This document shows, one piece after another, positions 2,100 through 60,238 of a stretch of 64,000 nucleotides of DNA. Both the position numbers and the translations under genes were made by a program. The stretch's first letter is position 1. Each line of letters begins with the position of its first letter. This DNA is from an uncultured Clostridia bacterium (GTDB lineage: Bacteria > Bacillota > Clostridia > Christensenellales > UBA1242), in the NCBI GenBank assembly GCA_944377315.1, contig CALWEM010000027.1, positions 9,934 through 73,933 on the forward strand, read 5' to 3'. A model generated the notes under the pieces. That model ran no database searches. It had not been told where the DNA came from and was given only the letters and a program-made list of their open reading frames with translations.

Positions 2100-2368
2100 A
2101 ACCGAGAGAATGCTTCGAGATAAAAAGCCCGACTGTTTCAAGAATATCTAAACTCCACCAAAGCAACCTTATGGCACATCAATAGATCTCCTTAATGATG
2201 CTTCCGTCAGGACCTGACATAGTTCAGAGTTACCAATTGCATAAGACCTTGATTTCATCGCCCAGATATTAAGCACATCTTCGACCTTCCTACCCCTAGG
2301 CAAGCGTTCGACCCTGCTTTGGCGGATTGCAGGTCACAGGGCACCGCCAACTCCCCATCTATCTCGGT
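2100..2368 (-). ncRNA. ffs: Signal recognition particle RNA, long Bacillus type with Alu domain
   Basis: Minus strand contains GGCGGTGCCCTGTGACCTGCAATCCGCC (Alu domain) and TGTCAGGTCCTGACGGAAGCATCATTAAGG (domain IV), both close to B. subtilis scRNA. About 269 nt. The 5' CCGAGA pairs with the 3' TCTCGG. Confidence 0.9.
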
Positions 2369-3562: not shown

Positions 3563-4582
<1,020 letters not shown>

Positions 4583-15836: not shown

Positions 15837-18800
15837 TTACCAATTAAATTTTTCATTGCAATCATCGCAACTTGAAGGGTCAAACACATTGTCAGCTGAT
15901 GAAGAATGACAACAAGTTAATGTTGTTTCATTGCTTCCGCCATTGAATGTGTAACTTGTGGTGTAGCAATAACTGATTGACGCATTTTCAACAAACCCCA
16001 CAAAACCAGCAATCATTCTCGCTGACTCATCAAGTGTTTGGTCAGTTTCCAAATCGCCAGTTTCATCGCCAGTTTCATCGCCAGTTTCATTTTGTGTTTC
16101 AGGCAAATATTCTTTTCCAATAATTTCTGAACGCGAACTTGAGACAGTCACATTTCCGCCTTCAATATAACCTGCAAATCCAGCAATATAGTATGGCAAA
16201 TTTTTTGTCGAATAAGCAATATGGATACCACTATCACTTGAATTTGAATTATTTGTGAAATCATTACCAGGCACTCCACTAGACACTTCGAATTTGTATG
16301 TCAAATTATTATTGTATGCGTCCAAGTTATATCTCAACAATAATTCCTTGTTATATCCAACATCACCACTACTTGCATCACCACTACTTACAGGCTTAAT
16401 TACTACGGTTGGTTGAGTGGTCGTTGTTTGTTGTGTGTCTTCACCATCTCCATTGTTTTCACCGCCTTCTTCACAAATGACAAAAATGTGATTTTCTGTG
16501 AATCCATTTTTATTGTAATTCACACTGCAACTATAATTATTCACATTTTTAAAAGTGGAATTAACTGCGTTCCCAACAACACCGCCAACCTTGCTGAACC
16601 CCGACACTGAACCACTGACCAAGTTGAGATTTTTTATGGTCGCGCCGTTAACACAGCCAAAAAGACCGATATTTTCCAAATTTTCAGCGGAAATACTCAA
16701 ATCGTATATTGAATAATATTGTCCGTCATAAATCCCATCAAAAGGAATTAGTTTTGTGCCAATAGGGACAAATTCTTTTGTTAGATATATGTCACAGGTT
16801 TGTTTGAATCTCATATTTTTAATATTATATCCTTCACCGCCATCAGTTTTTGTTTGCATCAATTGCATTGCCAGCCAATATAAATTTTCTTCACTCTTGA
16901 TTTCATAATAACCATTTTTGAATTCAGGCACACAAACAGTATAATTTCCTATTTCCATATAATTAGCCGTAAAAGTAAGAGTTATTTCTTGCTCATTTGA
17001 TGCAATGTCGTTAATAAGTTGGAAATCAAATTTTTCTCTATAAGTTAAAACTGGGTCCTTGTTTGAATCTGTGTCATCAGTTAAAACTGTGACATTGCTT
17101 GAATCTGTGTCATTGCTTGAAACTGTGATTTTATAACTTACACTTCCCAATTTGTGAAAGGAAATCTGGGTTTCATTACTACCATTACTATTTTCAACAT
17201 ATGCGTAACCCAAAAAATCAAAACTGATATGAGAATACGACTTAACAATAAAGGTTTTATTGCCTGTGCTTTCATCACCATTATTGACATTATTATTATA
17301 ATTCTCTCCATTAATATTGATTGAACCAACCAAACCGACACCACCGTCAGTCGTAAATTCCAACTTAATTGTTTTCAATGAGTAATAGGAAAGAAGATAG
17401 GCGGTTTTTTCTGTTCCATATATTATTATCGAATTTTCATCAGATTTAGTTCCACCATTTATAAGATAAATAAGTGGAGTTGAATCTGTCTTGCTATCTT
17501 CAATTTTGCTATTAATTGAGTCAACACTTATACTTTCATCAATTTCGTCACTTTTTGCAAAAACAAACTGATCTGATGAATCTCCATTTGCATAATAACC
17601 CTTTTGAGGAGTTTTGGTTATGTTCACAATATCTGTCAATTTTTTTTCAACATAATCGTCAAGACTTGAATTTATCTCATACTCATTCTCGCATCGCTTA
17701 CTATCATCAACCGAATCGCCATATTCAAACTTATTTGGCAAGAACACTCGAATGACGATTGTTTTGTTAGTTTCATCAATATAGGCATAAAACATTGAAA
17801 TCTCTTCATTATCAGTTACATTATCACTTTTGACTGCTATAATTGTTTCTCCGCCCAAATCATCTTTCGTATAACAATTAGAAGTCTTCACAGAAGCATC
17901 GTATATATCAACGATTTTAAAGGTGTAAGTCATAATTTTGCCACCAAAACTGTCATCTTTGTTGTCAGGATTTTCATAGCCCGGATCTACACTCTTTAGA
18001 TATTCTTTATCAACACTGATTGGAAATTTTTTGATGGTAACATTGATTTCACAATCATATTTATAATTGTCATTAAATAGTTTTTCAAGGTTCAATGAAA
18101 AATCTGTAACTTTTGTATTCTTGTCTAGAGTATAATAGAAAATTTGATTTCCACTTATACCCACTGGTGCATTAGAAAAAGTAATATCCACATAATTTTG
18201 ACCATCCATAGGGAAATTAGTTCCACCACCCCAATAGAAAGAAGCTTCATTATCTTTCCCTTTGTTCAAAAGTGATACCCCGTCAGTCTTAATATCACAC
18301 ACAAAATATGAATAATAAACTTCAAAGAAGTCGGCTTGCGTGTCGCTATCAGGAATTAAACTGACTTCTGGTATTGATACTTTCTTCTTTTCTCCTTCAA
18401 TATTTTCCCACAAATCTAGATTTCCATTGTTACTGGTTCTTGCATACTGCCTACTTTCATAGCCATAAGTTACAAACTTTGTTGTATTATTTTCTCCATC
18501 CACTCCATCCACAATTGTTGTCAAATTGGTGGTGATTTTATATTGATAACGCGAGAACAAAAGAATAAATTTATTTTCATTAAAAGGTGTTGTATTAAAG
18601 TAGCTAAAATCAATTGTGTAAGTCATTGTCGCATCACTATTAATACTACTATGATTAAAGACTCCACTTCCTTCATATAAAACATCAACAATTTTGTTTC
18701 CGTCTATTTTGTTTCCGACTATATTATCTTCTCTAAACACTCCAAAAAGTTCATAATTTTCATTCATTTTAATCGTCAGAACAATTTTCGAATTTGCTGA

Positions 18801-20714
18801 CACATTTTCAATTTTTAATTCTCCTGACTCGGAATTTACACTGTAAGTTGCACCGTCAACTTGACAATTTAAAATATAGCCACCCGCATTACCATATTCC
18901 CAATCATTTCCATCTAATATAAAATCATCCATATAAGCATTTTTAAAAACATAGTCTTTTTTTGCTAATCCACATTTAGCAACATATGTTGCATTATTAT
19001 TGTAACAAGTGGAAACATTTAAACCATTACTATCAGTAATCCGATCAGCAGTTTCTTCTTCACCATTATAAATACCTAAATATGTATATTTTCCGCTGTT
19101 ATTACTTGACACTTTAAATAACTCATTGGCAAATGGGTCTTTCGTAAAATGATATGTGTTTAATTTATTTGCATCATTGCCTTTCACATCACTATATGAG
19201 TTATCACTGGTTTTGACACTAACATAGTAACCATCATTATAATATTCAAATTTATAGTCAGTTGAACCATTCTCATTCACTTCATTCATAAGCCCAATAT
19301 CAATGGATGCAACAAAATATGACAATGTTATCATATCATCGCCATCAAAATTATTATAAGTTGAACAAATCGACATTGTTGTCCAATTCTTATCTAAATT
19401 GGAACCATATTTGTCACCCCAATTTATGTCTCCCAAACTACTTGTTATGTTGGTTTTTGATAAAATACTGTTTGAAGATGCTACTATTAATCCACTTGTT
19501 TCAGCATTCCCGTTATACAAAGGAAGATTTTTGTAGTTTGTTCGAATACAATCAGAAATTGTTAAAGATGAAAATGTTTCTACATTTCCAGCATAACAAC
19601 CAACTTGACCATTATTTATATTATTTTGAGTATAATTTGAATTGGCACTTACACAGCTTATTATTTTGTCATCATTACTGTTTAATCCAATTCCTCTACG
19701 AACAACATAACCTATGATTCCACCAACATATTTACTTGTGTTGTTTGTCCCTAATTGTCCATAGTTAACGCACCTAGTAATCTCTAAATCAGAATTCCTA
19801 ACAAGAACTAAACCAGATTCTACTGATGTTTCACCAACAATCCCGCCAACGTGTCCATTTCCATTTATTGAGCCATAATTGACACAATCAATAACTTTTG
19901 TATAAAAATCAGCAGCAGCTACAATAGAACTATCACCAATTGTAACTTCACCGACAATTCCGCCTTGCCCATTGTCATCGGTTGGTTCTAGATTAACCAT
20001 ATTAACACAACCTTCAATTGTGACCCCACCATAACTTGTAACCAAAATGCCAGCATTCGCTGCTGAAGCAACTCCGTCTGGTGCAACAAAAGCACAATTT
20101 TTGATTTCTGATGCTTTTGCTGTGCAAATAAAGCCACCTCTTTTCTCATCATTTTTAACTATTGGTGCTTCAAACACGATGTCATATATTTTTGCATCTG
20201 AAATATGTTCAAAAAGATAACCCCATTCCTCTAAATTGATTCCTCTGATTCCTGCCACATTTCCGTCTGCTTCGATAGTGCCATTCCCAATCAAACAGCC
20301 AGTGAAAGTTGTATCTTTTGAAAGATCCCAATAGTGTGCAGACATATCAAGATCGGCATTAACCAAAAAGACGCCATCTGGGTCTTTAATGATATATGCC
20401 AACTCTTCTGGCTTTGTCACAATATACGGACTATCTTGTGTGCCTTTACCTACATCAGGCTTTTTTGCATTACTTGACCATTTCCCGCTTGGCGTGGCGG
20501 TTGATGTCATATCGTCAGAGCCTTCACTTGATGTTTCACCACTCTCACTGTCACCACTCTCGGTTTGATTTTCATCTTCAACCGTGTAACTTGGATTTGT
20601 GTCCAAACTGTATGCATTAATTAAATTTGCACCGCACAAAGAAAAAACTGCCGTGAACAAAACGCACATTAAAGATATCAGAAATTTTTTTGATAAATTT
20701 TTCCCTAATCTCAT
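15837..20714 (-). CDS. Giant secreted protein with GLUG-type repeats at both ends
   Basis: 1625 aa with a signal peptide (MRLGKNLSKKFLISLMCVLFTAVFSLCGA). Repeated GG[IV][IV]G...C[VI]N.G motifs at N- and C-termini, an N/S/T/D-rich centre, and a Cys-rich tail CCHSSS...CDDCNEKFNW. Confidence 0.85.
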   Translation of the reverse strand: MRLGKNLSKKFLISLMCVLFTAVFSLCGANLINAYSLDTNPSYTVEDENQTESGDSESGETSSEGSDDMTSTATPSGKWSSNAKKPDVGKGTQDSPYIVTKPEELAYIIKDPDGVFLVNADLDMSAHYWDLSKDTTFTGCLIGNGTIEADGNVAGIRGINLEEWGYLFEHISDAKIYDIVFEAPIVKNDEKRGGFICTAKASEIKNCAFVAPDGVASAANAGILVTSYGGVTIEGCVNMVNLEPTDDNGQGGIVGEVTIGDSSIVAAADFYTKVIDCVNYGSINGNGHVGGIVGETSVESGLVLVRNSDLEITRCVNYGQLGTNNTSKYVGGIIGYVVRRGIGLNSNDDKIISCVSANSNYTQNNINNGQVGCYAGNVETFSSLTISDCIRTNYKNLPLYNGNAETSGLIVASSNSILSKTNITSSLGDINWGDKYGSNLDKNWTTMSICSTYNNFDGDDMITLSYFVASIDIGLMNEVNENGSTDYKFEYYNDGYYVSVKTSDNSYSDVKGNDANKLNTYHFTKDPFANELFKVSSNNSGKYTYLGIYNGEEETADRITDSNGLNVSTCYNNNATYVAKCGLAKKDYVFKNAYMDDFILDGNDWEYGNAGGYILNCQVDGATYSVNSESGELKIENVSANSKIVLTIKMNENYELFGVFREDNIVGNKIDGNKIVDVLYEGSGVFNHSSINSDATMTYTIDFSYFNTTPFNENKFILLFSRYQYKITTNLTTIVDGVDGENNTTKFVTYGYESRQYARTSNNGNLDLWENIEGEKKKVSIPEVSLIPDSDTQADFFEVYYSYFVCDIKTDGVSLLNKGKDNEASFYWGGGTNFPMDGQNYVDITFSNAPVGISGNQIFYYTLDKNTKVTDFSLNLEKLFNDNYKYDCEINVTIKKFPISVDKEYLKSVDPGYENPDNKDDSFGGKIMTYTFKIVDIYDASVKTSNCYTKDDLGGETIIAVKSDNVTDNEEISMFYAYIDETNKTIVIRVFLPNKFEYGDSVDDSKRCENEYEINSSLDDYVEKKLTDIVNITKTPQKGYYANGDSSDQFVFAKSDEIDESISVDSINSKIEDSKTDSTPLIYLINGGTKSDENSIIIYGTEKTAYLLSYYSLKTIKLEFTTDGGVGLVGSININGENYNNNVNNGDESTGNKTFIVKSYSHISFDFLGYAYVENSNGSNETQISFHKLGSVSYKITVSSNDTDSSNVTVLTDDTDSNKDPVLTYREKFDFQLINDIASNEQEITLTFTANYMEIGNYTVCVPEFKNGYYEIKSEENLYWLAMQLMQTKTDGGEGYNIKNMRFKQTCDIYLTKEFVPIGTKLIPFDGIYDGQYYSIYDLSISAENLENIGLFGCVNGATIKNLNLVSGSVSGFSKVGGVVGNAVNSTFKNVNNYSCSVNYNKNGFTENHIFVICEEGGENNGDGEDTQQTTTTQPTVVIKPVSSGDASSGDVGYNKELLLRYNLDAYNNNLTYKFEVSSGVPGNDFTNNSNSSDSGIHIAYSTKNLPYYIAGFAGYIEGGNVTVSSSRSEIIGKEYLPETQNETGDETGDETGDLETDQTLDESARMIAGFVGFVENASISYCYTTSYTFNGGSNETTLTCCHSSSADNVFDPSSCDDCNEKFNW
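16053..16088 (-). repeat. In-frame 12-nt tandem repeat (3 copies) encoding GDET
   Basis: ATCGCCAGTTTC x3 on the plus strand, giving GDETGDETGDETGD in the protein. Confidence 0.9.
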
Positions 20715-29280: not shown

Positions 29281-29516
29281 AAAAAATGCCGTCCCATATT
29301 ATTAGGACGACAAAGCCGTGATACCACCTAATTTCGTGCCGAAAAGCACCTCAATTTTGACATTTTACGCCTGCCAACGCGACAATCCCTACGCAATTTC
29401 TCTTCAAGATTGCAACTAGAAAGTGAATTCAACGGAGCAATTCTGTCTTTTTTCAGCAACCAAGACTCTCTGTGAGAACAGCCACCCGCCTACTACTCTT
29501 TCATCATCGTTTTTAC
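29281..29516 (-). promoter_or_regulatory. T-box riboswitch leader, Phe (UUC specifier)
   Basis: Minus strand has AGAGAG, distal GGTTGCTGAAA, specifier GAATTCA, T-box AAATTAGGTGGTATCACGG, and terminator CGTCCTAATAATATGGGACGG plus a T run. Confidence 0.88.
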
Positions 29517-54569: not shown

Positions 54570-55877
54570 ATGAAAAATCGAATAATACTTGGAAGTATCG
54601 CCGTTTTGCTTATGGCAACAACATTGGCTGGTTGTAACAGCGGAAAAGACGCCACAATGACAAATCTTGCAAACCAACTCGACAAGACGAATAATTCCAT
54701 TCAAAATGTGAAAACTCTCTCTGACACCGATTTGGATGTGACAGAAGAACTTTTGGACAAACTTGCAACGCAAAACCAAAGTGAAAATGTCCAAAAAAAC
54801 ATCAATATTGCAAAAAACACTTTAAATTGTGAGCGTAATTGCAAGAATGAAGTTTTGAGAAAAACCGCAAAAATCAAAAATTATCTCTCAAAAAATGACC
54901 TAAAACTTGCAAAAAATCAAATTTCAGCATTAAAATCGCTTTCAAAAAATTTGTCAAAATATAACAACAGCATTTCATATTCTGAAAAGGAGTTTAACAC
55001 CGCGATAAATCACTACAACAATATGAAAAAATCAATCAACAAAAATCCAGAAAGAGCAAACGCCAAATTGAACAGTATCACCTGCAACTCAAATGCACGC
55101 TGTGCCTACTATGAAAATATTTTGAACACCTTGGACCAAGTGGAAAATGTTTTGAACATCGAAAACTATAATCCATATCAAGACGACAACTATAACTATT
55201 TCCCACTTGAAGAAAAATTAGATGACGGAAATGAAAATCTCATTGAAAGTGATGAAAATATTGGCGAAGAGTATGAAACTGCAGAAAAGCCAAAGAAAAA
55301 ACGCTTCAAGAAAAACATCGACACCTATCTAAATGATGAAGACAAAGAGAAAAAAGAATTTGAAAAAGAATTTGGCGATAAGAATTTTAGGGACTATAAT
55401 CTTGACACATATGCACCAACCAAACGAAATATTGACACCTATCGCCCATATTATCCATATGGAAACAACTACCGAAATGGCTATATGGGAATGTATGGAC
55501 AATACGGACAAACTCCATATATGCCATATGGCACCCCGTATAATGCTCCAATAAACAATGGTTCACCATATGGATATAATGCAAACAATTTTAATCGTGT
55601 GGCACAATTTGTCGATACCGAAGAAGTTGAAAAGGTTAATGAAAAAGATGATGAAAAATTAAACGAAAAGGAAAAAACACAAAATTTTGATGAAAAAATT
55701 TCAAAAAACTTGAAAAAAAGTGAAAAAATCGAGAAAAATGCTCCAAAAAAGGATATGAGAGAAATTGAGAAAGAACCACGACTTGAAGAATTTGAAAACA
55801 AAAATGAGCAAGAAGTAAGCGGTCTTGATGTTGAAATAATTGGCAATGACGAAGAAAAAGTTGTGGCACATAATTAA
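54570..55877 (+). CDS. Lipoprotein with coiled N/K-rich region and a Tyr/Pro/Asn/Gly-rich segment
   Basis: Lipobox LLMATTLAGC. Internal PYYPYGNNYRNGYMGMYGQYGQTPYMPYGTPYNAPINNGSPYGYNANNF. Confidence 0.8.
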   Translation: MKNRIILGSIAVLLMATTLAGCNSGKDATMTNLANQLDKTNNSIQNVKTLSDTDLDVTEELLDKLATQNQSENVQKNINIAKNTLNCERNCKNEVLRKTAKIKNYLSKNDLKLAKNQISALKSLSKNLSKYNNSISYSEKEFNTAINHYNNMKKSINKNPERANAKLNSITCNSNARCAYYENILNTLDQVENVLNIENYNPYQDDNYNYFPLEEKLDDGNENLIESDENIGEEYETAEKPKKKRFKKNIDTYLNDEDKEKKEFEKEFGDKNFRDYNLDTYAPTKRNIDTYRPYYPYGNNYRNGYMGMYGQYGQTPYMPYGTPYNAPINNGSPYGYNANNFNRVAQFVDTEEVEKVNEKDDEKLNEKEKTQNFDEKISKNLKKSEKIEKNAPKKDMREIEKEPRLEEFENKNEQEVSGLDVEIIGNDEEKVVAHN

Positions 55878-55964: not shown

Positions 55965-56039
55965 TGGTGCACCCAGAAGGACTCGAACCCTCCATAATGG
56001 TTCCGAAGACCATTGTGATATCCACTTCACTATGGGTGC
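55965..56039 (-). tRNA. tRNA-Arg (anticodon UCG), CCA encoded
   Basis: Manual fold of 75 nt: acceptor GCACCCA/TGGGTGC, D arm GTGA..TCAC, anticodon stem ATGGT/ACCAT with loop CTTCGGA, T arm GAGGG-TTCGAGT-CCTTC, 3' ACCA. Confidence 0.92.
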
Positions 56040-56202
56040 ATAAATTATTATTAAGTTGAGAAAAAGTTGTTGCAATCAAGGAACCATTATGGATACTTTC
56101 GGGGACCCCAAAAATATTGATTTTTTTTGGGGAGCGGAGCCGTCAATTGTTTAGCGGAAGATGTTGCAAACATCGGAGCGATTAAATTGACAAGGCGGAG
56201 CC

Positions 56203-56243
56203 GGTTCCGAAGACCATTGTGATATCCACTTCACTATGGGTGC
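56203..56243 (-). pseudogene. tRNA-Arg(UCG) 5'-half copy 2 (positions 1-41 only)
   Basis: Identical to the first 41 nt of the intact tRNA. Identity stops 3 nt into the 3' anticodon-stem strand. Confidence 0.9.
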
Positions 56244-56403
56244 ATAAATTGTTATTAAGTTGAGAAAGAGTTGTTGCAATCAAGGAACCATTATGGACAC
56301 TTTCGGGGACCCCAAAAATATTGATTTTTTGGGAGCGAAGCCGTCAATTGTTTAGCGGAAGATGTTGCAAACATCGAAGCGATTAAATTGACAAGGCGGA
56401 GCC

Positions 56404-56444
56404 GGTTCCGAAGACCATTGTGATATCCACTTCACTATGGGTGC
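56404..56444 (-). pseudogene. tRNA-Arg(UCG) 5'-half copy 3
   Basis: As copy 2. Confidence 0.9.
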
Positions 56445-56604
56445 ATAAATGTTATTAAGTTGAGAAAGAGTTGTTGTAATCAAGGAACCATTATGGAGAC
56501 TTTCGGGGACCCCAAAAATATTGATTTTTTGGGGAGCGGAGCCGTCAATTGTTTAGCGGAAGATGTTACAAACATCGGAGCGATTAAATTGACAAGGCGG
56601 AGCC

Positions 56605-56645
56605 GGTTCCGAAGACCATTGTGATATCCACTTCACTATGGGTGC
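56605..56645 (-). pseudogene. tRNA-Arg(UCG) 5'-half copy 4
   Basis: As copy 2; the sequence upstream of it (toward tRNA-Ser, on the minus strand) diverges after GTTGAGAAAG. Confidence 0.9.
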
Positions 56646-56659
56646 AAAAATGTTATTAA

Positions 56660-56798
56660 GTTGAGAAAGGCATTCGCTCCGCGGTCTGTCCGTCTTTGGT
56701 GGTTGGTCCGCTTTCACGCCGGGGCGGAGAAAACTTGCACACAGGCAACTTTTCTATTTCCGCCCGTTCGAATCCCTAAAAGTTTCGTCTCAACTTAT
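56660..56798 (-). other. Unassigned GC-rich structured segment between tRNA-Ser and the repeat array
   Basis: Closing stem GTTGAGA/TCTCAAC and strong hairpin GGCGGAGAAAACTTGC..GCAACTTTTCTATTTCCGCC. GC content is far above the local background. Confidence 0.4.
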
Positions 56799-56888
56799 TG
56801 GCGCAGAGAAAGGGATTCGAACCCTTGGTGCGATTTCTCGCACACAGCCTTTCCAGGGCTGCACCTTAAACCGCTCGGACATCTCTGC
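56799..56888 (-). tRNA. tRNA-Ser (anticodon GGA), CCA encoded
   Basis: Manual fold of 90 nt: acceptor GCAGAGA/TCTCTGC, anticodon stem CAGCC/GGCTG with loop CTGGAAA, long variable arm, T arm AAGGG-TTCGAAT-CCCTT. Confidence 0.92.
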
Positions 56889-56938: not shown

Positions 56939-56968
56939 ATTATATCAAACCGAGTGGTTTAAGGTCAA
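56939..56968 (-). promoter_or_regulatory. Sigma-A promoter of the tRNA-Ser / tRNA-Arg locus
   Basis: Minus strand TTGACC-18 nt-TATAAT, about 50 nt upstream of tRNA-Ser. Confidence 0.7.
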
Positions 56969-57194
56969 GGGTTCAATAAAAATATTTCATAATTAAAATC
57001 TTTAAACCACTCAATTATTATAACAAAACCAAATTAAAAAAACAATCAATTATGGCATTTTTTTCATTATTTAGTATCAAAAAATCTCAATTTCTTGCCG
57101 TATTCTTAATCTTAAAAATTATTTTCGCATCTTGCATCATCATAATTCACTCTTTATCATCAATTGCTTGAAGCGAGATTAAAACAATCTCCTA

Positions 57195-58804: not shown

Positions 58805-60238
58805 TTAACCATTCTTATCTTTTAATTTTTCACTTGCCTTGTTGAAATAGACAAATGAAGCCTTGTCATCTTTCACGCCGTGAAGAACAAATTCAAAACG
58901 CTCTTTTGCTTCCTTAAACTTCTTCTCGTCATACAATCGAACACCATCTTCAAATTGATTTTTAAACTTCAAGAGTTTGTCCCTTTTCGACTTTTTGAAA
59001 GCATCAAGCCCTTCAAAAAGTTCAATCTTTTCTTTTTCAACAGTCAATTTGCCGATATATCGATATTTAAAATCATATTTTGGCGGTAAACTTTCAAGCA
59101 CCTTTTTTGAAATCAAAAATTTGGCATCGACAAAAGATGAAAGTTCTTGCATTTTCCCCATAACAGAAAAAACATCATTTTCAATTGATGGAATTTTTCT
59201 TTCTTCATCACCAGAAATTGAAAAGGTGAAGATGTCATTAAAAAGACAAATGTTTGGCTCGAATTTAGATTTTTTGTTTTTCTCTCCCAGTCCTTTAAGT
59301 ATGGCATTTGAGCATTCAATGGCGTTTTTCGAATTTCCAAAACAAGCCAAAACACATTCGCCTGAAAACTTATCAATGAATCCGTCAAAGCGTTTGATGA
59401 GTGGAGCGACAAACTTAAAATATGAATTAATGTAGTTAAAATTTTCTTCAAGAGTCAAAATCTTTTTCGAATCATTTTTCAAGTTACAAAACAAAATTGT
59501 CGCATTTTTTTGAATTTTTTTGCCTAATTCAAGTTCTTTTATATCATTTTTCTCAAAAAATTTTAAAATTTGCTTTGGCATATATTTTTGACTCTCGAAA
59601 TTTGCCACCTTGATTTTATTCTCTTTTTCTTTATATATGTGATTAATTTTGTTCAACGAATGTTCAATATTTTGAAACTGCTTGTTTCCACCAACTTTAA
59701 AGTCGTCCATTTTGACTCGCCCATCGCCCAACTTTGCTGTGACGCGTTCCACTTTCTTCAGTGGCAAGCAACTAAACAAAATCAAAATGAAAAGAAGAAC
59801 AACATACATAAGAATTGCCACAACAATCCACAAAATTGCATTGCTATTAAAAGCGTTGTCAATATTAAGAGCATTTCGCACCGATTGAGAAGTCAAATCT
59901 TCAAGATTATTTATATTGGAAATGTAAACAACAAAAAATCCAAAATTGACAGTTAATGGAAGTATTGAGAAAAAGAGTTGATTTTGAAGAGAAAGACTTT
60001 TCAGAAAAATAATATACAAAATTGTGGAAACAATTGTGAAAGCAACAAAAACACCCAGTGCCACATATGACCAAGTCGAGAAGTTAAACACAAACCCTTG
60101 CGGTGTTGGAACTATGGCATCAAATAAATGCCTAAAAAGAAAAATGTTTGGAATTAACAAAATAATTGTTAAAATTATCAAAATTTTTGTTGATTTTTTC
60201 ATATTTTTAGTTTGAGATAAAAGTTTTTTTATATGCAA
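58805..60238 (-). CDS. Multi-TM protein with a degenerate class III nucleotidyl cyclase-like domain
   Basis: 6 TM helices, then ATILFCNLKN...DKFSGECVLACFG resembling the cyclase homology domain. The true start may be the ATG at 60202. Confidence 0.6.
   Translation of the reverse strand: MHIKKLLSQTKNMKKSTKILIILTIILLIPNIFLFRHLFDAIVPTPQGFVFNFSTWSYVALGVFVAFTIVSTILYIIFLKSLSLQNQLFFSILPLTVNFGFFVVYISNINNLEDLTSQSVRNALNIDNAFNSNAILWIVVAILMYVVLLFILILFSCLPLKKVERVTAKLGDGRVKMDDFKVGGNKQFQNIEHSLNKINHIYKEKENKIKVANFESQKYMPKQILKFFEKNDIKELELGKKIQKNATILFCNLKNDSKKILTLEENFNYINSYFKFVAPLIKRFDGFIDKFSGECVLACFGNSKNAIECSNAILKGLGEKNKKSKFEPNICLFNDIFTFSISGDEERKIPSIENDVFSVMGKMQELSSFVDAKFLISKKVLESLPPKYDFKYRYIGKLTVEKEKIELFEGLDAFKKSKRDKLLKFKNQFEDGVRLYDEKKFKEAKERFEFVLHGVKDDKASFVYFNKASEKLKDKNG

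Follow-up and report, generated by a model that had tools for sequence, protein, structure and literature searches.

This locus raises the question of how a bacterial tRNA gene comes to be preceded by several copies of its own first half. It lies in a 64-kb stretch of a contig from an uncultured Clostridia bacterium (CALWEM010000027.1), hereafter the window, to which all positions refer. Three extra 5' halves of tRNA-Arg(UCG), each fused to a structured module (module B), stand upstream of the intact gene; the array and both tRNA genes of the locus, tRNA-Arg and tRNA-Ser, are on the minus strand. Our answer, which is tentative and given with a confidence just short of even, is that the array represents three tandem copies of a protein-less cassette of ~201 bp in the anticodon stem of tRNA-Arg(UCG), which regenerates the gene and accretes. 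Supporting this are an empty allele, three further tRNA positions in relatives that show this design, each with a matching target-complementary segment (G), and the occurrence of the hairpin of the module (H) in a widespread motif.

55965-56039, minus strand: intact tRNA-Arg(UCG) (ARAGORN; Rfam tRNA, 60.5 bits)
56445-56669, minus strand: unit 1; covariance-model match 56503-56556 (E = 5.7e-7); inverted repeat I3, 15/15 nt
Parts of unit 1, minus strand: leader 56669-56646; 5' half 56645-56605; module from 56604; H 56534-56503; G 56498-56484 (15 nt); spacer X 56483-56469; leader 56468-56445
56244-56444, minus strand: unit 2; covariance-model match 56303-56355 (E = 1.5e-4); inverted repeat I9, 14/14 nt
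Parts of unit 2, minus strand: 5' half 56444-56404; module from 56403; H 56333-56303; G 56297-56284; X 56283-56269; leader 56268-56244
56040-56243, minus strand: unit 3; covariance-model match 56099-56154 (E = 2e-7); inverted repeat I8, 14/14 nt
Parts of unit 3, minus strand: displaced 5' half 56243-56203; module from 56202; H 56132-56099; G 56093-56080; X 56079-56065; leader 56064-56040

Tandem Repeats Finder (TRF) placed the array at 55999-56669, with a period of 201, 3.3 copies and 96% matches. The 41-nt 5' half of tRNA-Arg occurs four times (56645-56605, 56444-56404, 56243-56203, and 56039-55999) at spacings of 201, 201, and 204, and a common leader of 24-25 nt precedes every copy; 5' half and leader together form direct repeats of 65-72 bp. 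Identity to tRNA-Arg breaks off after ..CTTCGGAACC, 3 nt into the 3' strand of the anticodon stem. A first-pass annotation of this DNA had described tandem tRNA-Arg 5' halves with a module upstream of the intact gene, four copies of the 41-nt half at periods of 204, 201, and 201, and an end of identity in the 3' strand of the anticodon stem. The arrangement was confirmed by ARAGORN, Rfam, and TRF, the same coordinates were recovered for the periods and copies, and the end of identity was found where it had been placed.

Each unit is made up of tRNA-Arg nt 1-41, a leader of ~24 nt, a structured module of ~70 nt, hairpin H, and segment G; the 15-nt spacer X is followed by the 24-nt leader, with weak promoter-like hexamers. 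The element-specific DNA of a unit amounts to only ~130 nt, and starts with GGCTCCGCC joined to tRNA-Arg nt 41; the module folds better than shuffled sequence (z = -2.1 to -2.4). No open reading frame (ORF) of at least 60 aa runs through the units, despite a period divisible by 3. The four features previously ascribed to module B (a repeat-flanked stem, GCGGAG-like motifs, a hairpin, and an antisense stretch) were all found: the direct repeat GGCTCCGC occurs five times versus 0.21 expected in the window, the stem GTCAATT/AATTGAC surrounds the hairpin GATGTT-TGC-AACATC, CTCCGC-type motifs are present, and the hairpin CCCCAAAAA..TTTTTGGGG belongs to H. The units are told apart by private single-nucleotide polymorphisms (SNPs). 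In unit 2, one C of the CCCC of H is gone and two CTCCG>CTTCG changes are present, the latter being the repeated change in two GCGGAG motifs that had been reported for this unit. Module B and H are confined to this single locus within the window. The locus is set among housekeeping genes, and the host is a low-G+C, sporulating gut Clostridia bacterium, as indicated by SpoVA, YunB, and SpoIIIAA genes, a T-box, and a large signal recognition particle (SRP) RNA.

Same-species contigs were found in public assemblies (ENA, Logan) via the flanking MnmA protein and the downstream 435-aa ORF. One of them (L005) possesses a three-unit array identical to that of the window, and partial arrays with the same unit-specific SNPs are present in L003, L006, L008, and L009, so that the array or parts of it occur in at least five independent assemblies. 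Another contig of the same species with essentially identical flanks, L001, is without any module DNA: tRNA-Ser, a spacer, and intact tRNA-Arg follow directly in succession, and the covariance model of H (see below) finds nothing there. Since the complete and partial arrays are present and L001 is empty, the array is, as far as the assembled sequences tell, a real strain polymorphism, the exact copy number in short-read assemblies being provisional. That the repeat was made or inflated by the assembler can hardly be the case. Short-read contigs do often break within the array (L002, L003, L004, L006), but the independent assemblies with private unit SNPs, the identical three-unit structure of L005, and analogous arrays in sister species show otherwise. 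Compared with the window, 10-17 nt just before tRNA-Arg are replaced in L001, and SNPs are clustered beside tRNA-Arg; the sequences suggest that array and empty alleles were exchanged by homologous recombination, not by clean insertion or excision.

The first-pass annotation had proposed a comparison of the tRNA-Ser/tRNA-Arg locus in relatives. This comparison yielded presence and absence within the same species, and a duplicated 5' half was also found elsewhere (L087). Sister-species loci were reached through MnmA homologues, and the percentages given here are MnmA identities; the route through the downstream 435-aa ORF led to orthologous loci in relatives without the tRNA locus. In the sister species L087 (93%), tRNA-Arg(UCG) differs in sequence and its 5' half is present at least twice, with a module behind each copy; H is present. 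Its G, GAACTAATGGTTCC, matches GGAACCATTAGTTC of its own tRNA, and the antisense segment therefore co-varies with the target. The tRNA-Ser of this locus comes after a 17-nt 5' fragment, a module, H, and CTTAAACCGCTCG, the last of which spans the D-loop junction. Two to three tandem units with GCACCTTAAACCAC as G are located in the tRNA-Ser D-loop of L090 (86%), where the junction lies 4 nt further along than in L087 and the antisense segment is shifted to suit. A further D-loop unit was found in L213/L214 (88%), and a T-loop junction in tRNA-Leu was found in an unrelated gut contig (L164), with a 15-nt G split 6+9 as in the window. The junctions of related modules are at D-loop positions 17 and 21, anticodon stem position 41, and T-loop position 56/57; internal junctions lie in or beside loops (D-loop, T-loop, anticodon/variable region).

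In another species (84%), a module in reverse orientation lies immediately before tRNA-Ser, and within it L215 differs from L216/L217 by an indel of 167 nt. The comparison of L215 3590-3800 with L216/L217 3590-3640 places a canonical reverse module 3 nt from tRNA-Ser +1, and the extra 167 nt of one strain have a 31-nt direct repeat on their flanks, representing a second presence/absence polymorphism of such a module.

These loci bear on an account without ongoing mobility, namely one ancient rearrangement followed by ordinary tandem duplication that left the array as neutral junk, which we regard as unlikely. The 96% identity of the units is compatible with unequal crossing-over, to which direct repeats of 65-72 bp are well suited; unit 2 is decaying, and module B is found at this locus only. 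However, the entry of the module is left unexplained while the empty allele has none of it, the design recurs at four different tRNA positions plus an unrelated contig, and a related module is polymorphic in another species (L215 vs L216/L217). Plain slippage, as suggested in the first-pass annotation, fares similarly: it can account for growth from one unit to three, but not for the arrival of the module.

Segment G of the window is a perfect 14-15-nt reverse complement of tRNA-Arg nt 36-50 (I3, I8, I9) and spans the insertion point, with 6 nt on the retained side and 8-9 nt past it. Across elements, G is a perfect complement of 12-15 nt that always lies over the junction, is matched to its target in seven independent elements, and is located 2-6 nt from H. 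At metagenome sites of H (described below), a complement of at least 11 nt was found in 4 of 123 among the matches listed, compared with 2 in shuffled controls; only L164 is convincing among these sites, and it is also the only one joined at an internal tRNA position. Going by these sequences, G is a companion of junctions inside tRNAs, not of modules at tRNA ends. Two IMG/VR prophage ends (L075 13650-13745 and L078 8287-8460) consist of a tRNA 3' fragment, an antisense T-arm copy, and a second 3' fragment, with a third copy in L078 whose T-loop contains an inserted 20-nt hairpin. The att sites of tRNA genes may commonly have inverted pieces of the T-arm, although such matches are inflated by the near self-complementarity of this arm.

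G invites a nucleic-acid-guided explanation, in which G, as RNA or single-stranded DNA, would pair across the future junction and thereby place the module end for strand joining by a trans-acting nuclease or recombinase. The perfect, junction-spanning, and target-specific complement in seven elements, its presence only when the junction is internal to the tRNA, and its position next to H, which gives a scaffold-plus-guide layout, are in favor of such a guide. Nevertheless, it appears improbable: the Rfam models of bridge RNAs, omega-RNAs, and group II intron domains found nothing here, a DEDD recombinase, TnpB, IscB, or intron-encoded protein is absent from the window, canonical modules at tRNA ends are without G, and G may equally be a by-product of joining, e.g., by fold-back or priming.

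In the window, H has the form CCCCAAAA..TTTTGGGG-T-CCCCGA, and in all modules of the clade CCCCAAAA-N-TTTYGGGG-W-CCCCRA is located just ahead of the antisense segment. The pattern was found in at least 120 stretches of a metagenome collection, on contigs of 33-76% G+C among the matches listed, while no match was obtained in IMG/VR. The upper stem (inner pairs) of H covaries, its base and tail are invariant, and one conserved pair is A.C on the module strand and would be G.U on the opposite strand. H is defined by the base CCCCAAAA/TTTYGGGG, a variable covarying top, the tail WCCCCRA, and a pyrimidine tract in front. The units fall under this definition by their match to a covariance model (CM, R1) built from 35 metagenome H sites only. 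All three were matched, with E = 2e-7 to 1.5e-4, and the rest of the 64 kb gave no match, in a test that is partly circular because the search pattern came from this clade.

Most H matches close a module of ~100-130 nt, which opens with (T)CGTCG and a closing stem and continues through variable hairpins and a CUCCUCU-like tract to H and ACCCCGA. The 5' end of the tRNA-adjacent metagenome modules abuts a tRNA end with zero gap (8/8 among the matches listed). Three of the eight follow the tRNA 3' end on the same strand (L096 and L113 directly after CCA, L157 without CCA), and five abut tRNA nt +1 on the opposite strand (L116, L120, L150, L148, L199). Unit B is also joined directly at its 5' end to tRNA-derived sequence (tRNA nt 41); it begins with GGCTCCGCC and is without the P1 closing stem and the (T)CGTCG start. 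H is present within other stable-RNA genes as well. A 5S rRNA gene (L094 360-516; Rfam 60 bits) of 157 nt has a ~40-nt insert that holds H on the sense strand, and in a class-A RNase P RNA gene (L171 4296-4709, minus strand) H with a GGGGACCCC tail is inserted in the P12 region relative to the Rfam model, again on the sense strand.

Several observations accompany the metagenome modules. In L206 (~3690-3730), H stands alone without a module and has the 12-nt direct repeat TGGATTTAATTT on both sides, which is compatible with H being insertable on its own. In Bacteroidetes-like contigs (L116, L121, L150, L199), a TAnnTTTG promoter motif lies immediately beyond H, outside the module, and is directed across the reverse module towards the tRNA that abuts it; the reverse-complemented module would there be a pre-tRNA 5' leader. 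No protein family recurs beside the metagenome H sites (n = 123, among the matches listed), and a search of canonical modules against plasmids and phages gave nothing useful. Nothing relevant to H was found in the literature, by sequence string or by concept. The GUCCY-hairpin motif (Weinberg 2010), a short hairpin with GUC and CY flanks (PMC2864571), was considered as the identity of H and rejected, the published alignment having a different sequence and flanks.

The wider distribution of module B itself was traced with several probes. Its start (18-mer) has no true match in 185,579 GTDB representative genomes: nine 18-mer matches are chance occurrences in unrelated taxa, among them one in a Christensenellaceae metagenome-assembled genome that ends after 20 nt. 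The module B core and the tRNA-Arg 5' half have no match in IMG/VR, one unit compared with phage and plasmid collections by BLAST gave chance or tRNA matches only, and a generalised GCGGAG-spacing pattern gave 48 matches in IMG/VR, all of which are simple tandem repeats. Going by these probes, module B seems to be confined to this clade. Scanning Rfam 15 gave tRNA matches only, in the window region and 17 related loci, at the gathering threshold and at E up to 10; the region has no non-tRNA match. The first-pass annotation had not recognised a known RNA class either. Whether module B is a common dispersed repeat, as that annotation also asked, has a split answer: the CCCCAAAAA hairpin belongs to a widespread metagenome motif, but the module outside H shows no significant similarity to the metagenome modules.

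The exact joints at tRNA ends raise the possibility of an RNA-mediated, bacterial-SINE-like (short interspersed element) origin, in which a reverse transcriptase would copy the module RNA from the 3' hairpin and, on reaching the module 5' end, jump to a tRNA 3' end or fragment, and the chimeric complementary DNA would be fixed at the tRNA gene by homology. The zero-gap abutment in all eight tRNA-adjacent copies listed fits such an origin, as these tRNA ends would exist only at the RNA level; internal junctions in or near loops, the CCA end of the tRNA-Ser copy next to a second element (element A, below) as opposed to the CC-T of the displaced original in L001, and H followed by ACC, which may resemble an acceptor/T-arm minihelix, point the same way. 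We consider it rather unlikely, however. There is no reverse transcriptase in the window and none recurring near the 123 metagenome sites, G is not simply explained, and the duplicated block of L087 and L213 includes the tRNA-Ser promoter spacer or -35 region, which is not expected of a transcript. A duplicated block starting at the transcription start site, as a signature of RNA, was accordingly rejected for tRNA-Ser, where the block has promoter-spacer DNA.

The sense-strand position of H in the 5S rRNA and RNase P RNA genes could also indicate a functional RNA, i.e., small RNAs cut from the tRNA operon transcript by tRNA-processing enzymes, or an antisense that modulates tRNA-Arg maturation, with the array raising the dosage. 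The tRNA-Ser/tRNA-Arg transcription unit, which has a strong promoter ahead of the units, includes them; the module has a fold z of -2.1 to -2.4, the inner stem pairs of H covary, and in Bacteroidetes-like contigs the reverse module stands between the TAnnTTTG motif and the tRNA. Yet a strain of the same species (L001) dispenses with the array, motif-breaking changes pile up in the units, the fold z-scores are modest, and modules occur in both orientations to transcription across genomes, as would be expected if they acted as DNA or if either strand were tolerated. A functional RNA is quite improbable in our estimate.

The other tRNA gene of the locus has apparently been a target as well, on both of its sides:

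56799-56888, minus strand: tRNA-Ser(GGA) (ARAGORN, Rfam), targeted on its 3' side by element A and on its 5' side by an older decayed unit
56663-56798, minus strand: element A (the 'GC-rich spacer'), read as a mirror-image element in the T-loop of tRNA-Ser; inverted repeat I19, 12/12 nt; fold z = -3.05
56797-56788, minus strand: TAAGTTGAGA motif of element A
56777-56766, minus strand: antisense T-arm AGGGATTCGAAC of element A (I19)
56684-56676, minus strand: CCGCGGAGC, end of the structured body of element A
56675-56663, minus strand: GAATGCCTTTCTC, remnant of the displaced tRNA-Ser 3' end
56939-57012, minus strand: probable decayed older unit, now the tRNA-Ser promoter; promoter with 11/12 matches; inverted repeats I5, 15/16, and I20, 11/11
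56968-56939, minus strand: tRNA-Ser promoter TTGACC-18-TATAAT, 11/12 matches

The stretch between tRNA-Ser and the array had been described as a 'GC-rich spacer' and is itself an element of this kind. In L001, the spacer ends in a perfect 19-nt copy of the tRNA-Ser 3' end, GAATCCCTTTCTCTGCGCC, from the T-loop on, so that the ~123-nt spacer is bracketed by tRNA-Ser sequence like an integrated element; by this sequence evidence it is an inserted element in the tRNA-Ser T-loop. AGGGATTCGAAC is the reverse complement of the tRNA-Ser T-loop region across the junction of element A, and the fold of the element beats all 200 shuffles (z = -3.05). The tRNA-Ser gene beside element A encodes CCA, while the displaced copy in L001 ends CC-T. 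Element A and the reverse-complemented unit B share a common order (tRNA part, TAAGTTGAGA, a 10-18-nt spacer, the junction-antisense segment, and a structured body), and in both the body ends in GCGGAGC exactly at the junction with the displaced fragment. A homologue of element A is present in L090. Between L001 (7560-7612) and the window (56670-56700), the SNPs in element A are concentrated in its final 40 nt.

On the 5' side, the spacer of the tRNA-Ser promoter, ACCTTAAACCACTCGG (56965-56950), is 15/16 complementary to the tRNA-Ser D-arm, and a sense-like D-arm remnant, GAGTGGTTTAA (57012-57002), lies 40 nt upstream. Intact counterparts with module and H are found at the same place in L087, L090, and L213 and can be aligned with the window, on the basis of which the strong tRNA-Ser promoter is, most simply, probably a decayed older unit.

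According to the cassette reading favored here, the cassette would run, on the tRNA strand, from the ~70-nt module through H with its tail (A/T)CCCCGA, G, and the 15-nt spacer plus 24-nt leader to tRNA nt 1-41. Upon insertion, its 5' half would be placed before the resident 3' half. The joining of the two would keep the tRNA-Arg gene intact, the present gene (55965-56039, minus strand) being a cassette-type 5' half (56039-55999) plus the resident 3' half, and the old 5' half would be stranded upstream, fused to the module where the latter begins. Regeneration of the target would allow further copies to be added there, and unequal crossing-over between the repeats of 65-72 bp could likewise change the copy number in either direction. 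B-type units would bring the 5' part with the leader, and A-type elements the 3' part. The units would decay later, as with the lost motif bases of unit 2 and the older unit before tRNA-Ser, which would have been reduced to a promoter. The factors that move the cassette would have to come from elsewhere in the genome or beyond it, as the 64-kb window has no gene for an integrase, reverse transcriptase, or transposase (Pfam, ORFs of at least 200 aa), consistent with the earlier statement that no integrase is nearby. The arrival of a unit as one cassette, the part of G in site choice, the enzyme, and a DNA or RNA intermediate are all points that we infer. Besides the guided and the RNA-templated routes, a trans-acting site-specific recombinase working on minimal att-like DNA would be an option and is the classical analogy, weakened by the many crossover positions and the inverted target copy; none of the three enzymologies is established.

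Several points weigh against this cassette. No mobilising enzyme was identified in the 64-kb window, excised or circular forms were not seen, and growth from one unit to three needs no activity of an element. The empty L001, instead of being the direct ancestor, may have arisen by recombination between alleles. A wider spread of module B appears unsupported, as the GTDB, IMG/VR, phage, and plasmid searches gave no match. Apart from H, the comparison of module B with the metagenome modules gave no significant similarity (nhmmer; Smith-Waterman vs shuffles), and its putative link to the wider family comes from ~32 nt (H) plus a shared architecture. There is nonetheless a real, if minor, chance that the H modules constitute an unrecognised class of non-autonomous element that attaches to stable-RNA genes at mature tRNA ends or, guided by a self-carried 12-15-nt segment, at internal loops and rebuilds the gene, in an RNA-templated or nucleic-acid-guided manner.

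The nearest known systems are tRNA-targeted integrative elements with their cargo-less derivatives, miniature inverted-repeat transposable element (MITE)/repetitive extragenic palindromic (REP) repeats, and, in logic only, guide-bearing elements, to each of which the locus conforms in part. Like tRNA-targeting integrative elements and cis-mobilisable elements (CIMEs), it has direct repeats of tRNA segments that bracket the insert (four 41-nt 5' halves with a 24-nt leader; 19 nt for element A in L001), a restored tRNA, empty and filled alleles in one species (L001), and tandem stacking; in element A the duplicated portion is the 3' part beginning in the T-loop, which is a classical sublocation for integrases. 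Among the options offered by the first-pass annotation, miniature cis-mobilisable att-flanked elements therefore fit best and are partly supported, namely by the empty allele, the regenerated tRNA, and the recurrence of the design at other tRNA positions, but not by a recombinase, since no cognate one is present within the window (ORFs of at least 200 aa, Pfam). Unlike CIMEs, which have one fixed crossover per integrase family and a 3' duplication, unit B duplicates the 5' part, and four crossover positions are observed. Further differences are the ~130 nt of specific DNA, the restoration of 5' half and leader by unit B, and the inverted target copy of each element. To our knowledge, att sites do not need an inverted copy of their own target.

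The units resemble MITE/REP-type repeats (RPE, Correia, BOX) in being short, non-coding, hairpin-rich, and tolerated intergenically, with H dispersed even in stable-RNA genes. Terminal inverted repeats with a short target duplication are not present; the sole end pair is the target-derived GGAACC/GGTTCC, and the duplication is 65-72 nt. The duplicated target is functional, and H is kept across contigs of 33-76% G+C, unlike MITEs, which are lineage-specific. Similar to IS110/IS1111 bridge/seek RNAs, group II exon- and intron-binding sites (EBS-IBS), and IS200/605 omega-RNA, a target-matched complement lies over the insertion point beside a structured scaffold, whereas the putative guide is one contiguous 12-15-mer and a long target copy is carried; no Pfam domains of a DEDD recombinase, TnpA/TnpB, or an intron reverse transcriptase were detected in the window, and no scaffold was matched in Rfam.

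The tRNA inserts in the Neurospora Mauriceville retroplasmid, U6/L1 chimeras, and tRNA-derived SINEs are template-switch retro-copies. The modules are like these in being joined exactly to mature small-RNA ends and in having a 3' hairpin plus ACC that is like a tRNA tag, and unlike them in that no reverse transcriptase was found in the window and the duplicated block can hold promoter DNA; we know of no chimeric retro-copy elements in bacteria. The split tRNA genes of Nanoarchaeum also have a 5' half followed by sequence complementary in relation to the other half. In contrast to Nanoarchaeum, the intact gene is present here, the halves are redundant, the complement is to the tRNA body, and the host is a bacterium.

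If the cassette is mobile, essential tRNA genes would be invaded harmlessly by an element that supplies a replacement half-gene and, apparently, an address label. It would add a protein-less, possibly guide-using element to the mobile DNA that targets tRNA genes, would account for stray tRNA halves in bacterial genomes, and its insertions could be recycled as promoters, as apparently happened upstream of tRNA-Ser. H, which is conserved at no fewer than 120 metagenomic sites over a wide G+C range and has no Rfam entry, likely has a widespread recogniser.

Finally, three ORFs of the window are without a Pfam domain: 15837-20714 (minus strand, 1625 aa), 54570-55877 (plus strand, 435 aa), and 58805-60238 (minus strand, 477 aa). 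Homologues of the 435-aa protein are found in related uncultured gut Clostridia only, with Candidatus Caccovivens (42% identity) as the best named match. A bacterial large SRP RNA (2102-2367, minus strand) and a T-box leader upstream of pheS/pheT (29300-29516, minus strand) are also possessed by the window; both are ordinary and point to Firmicutes.

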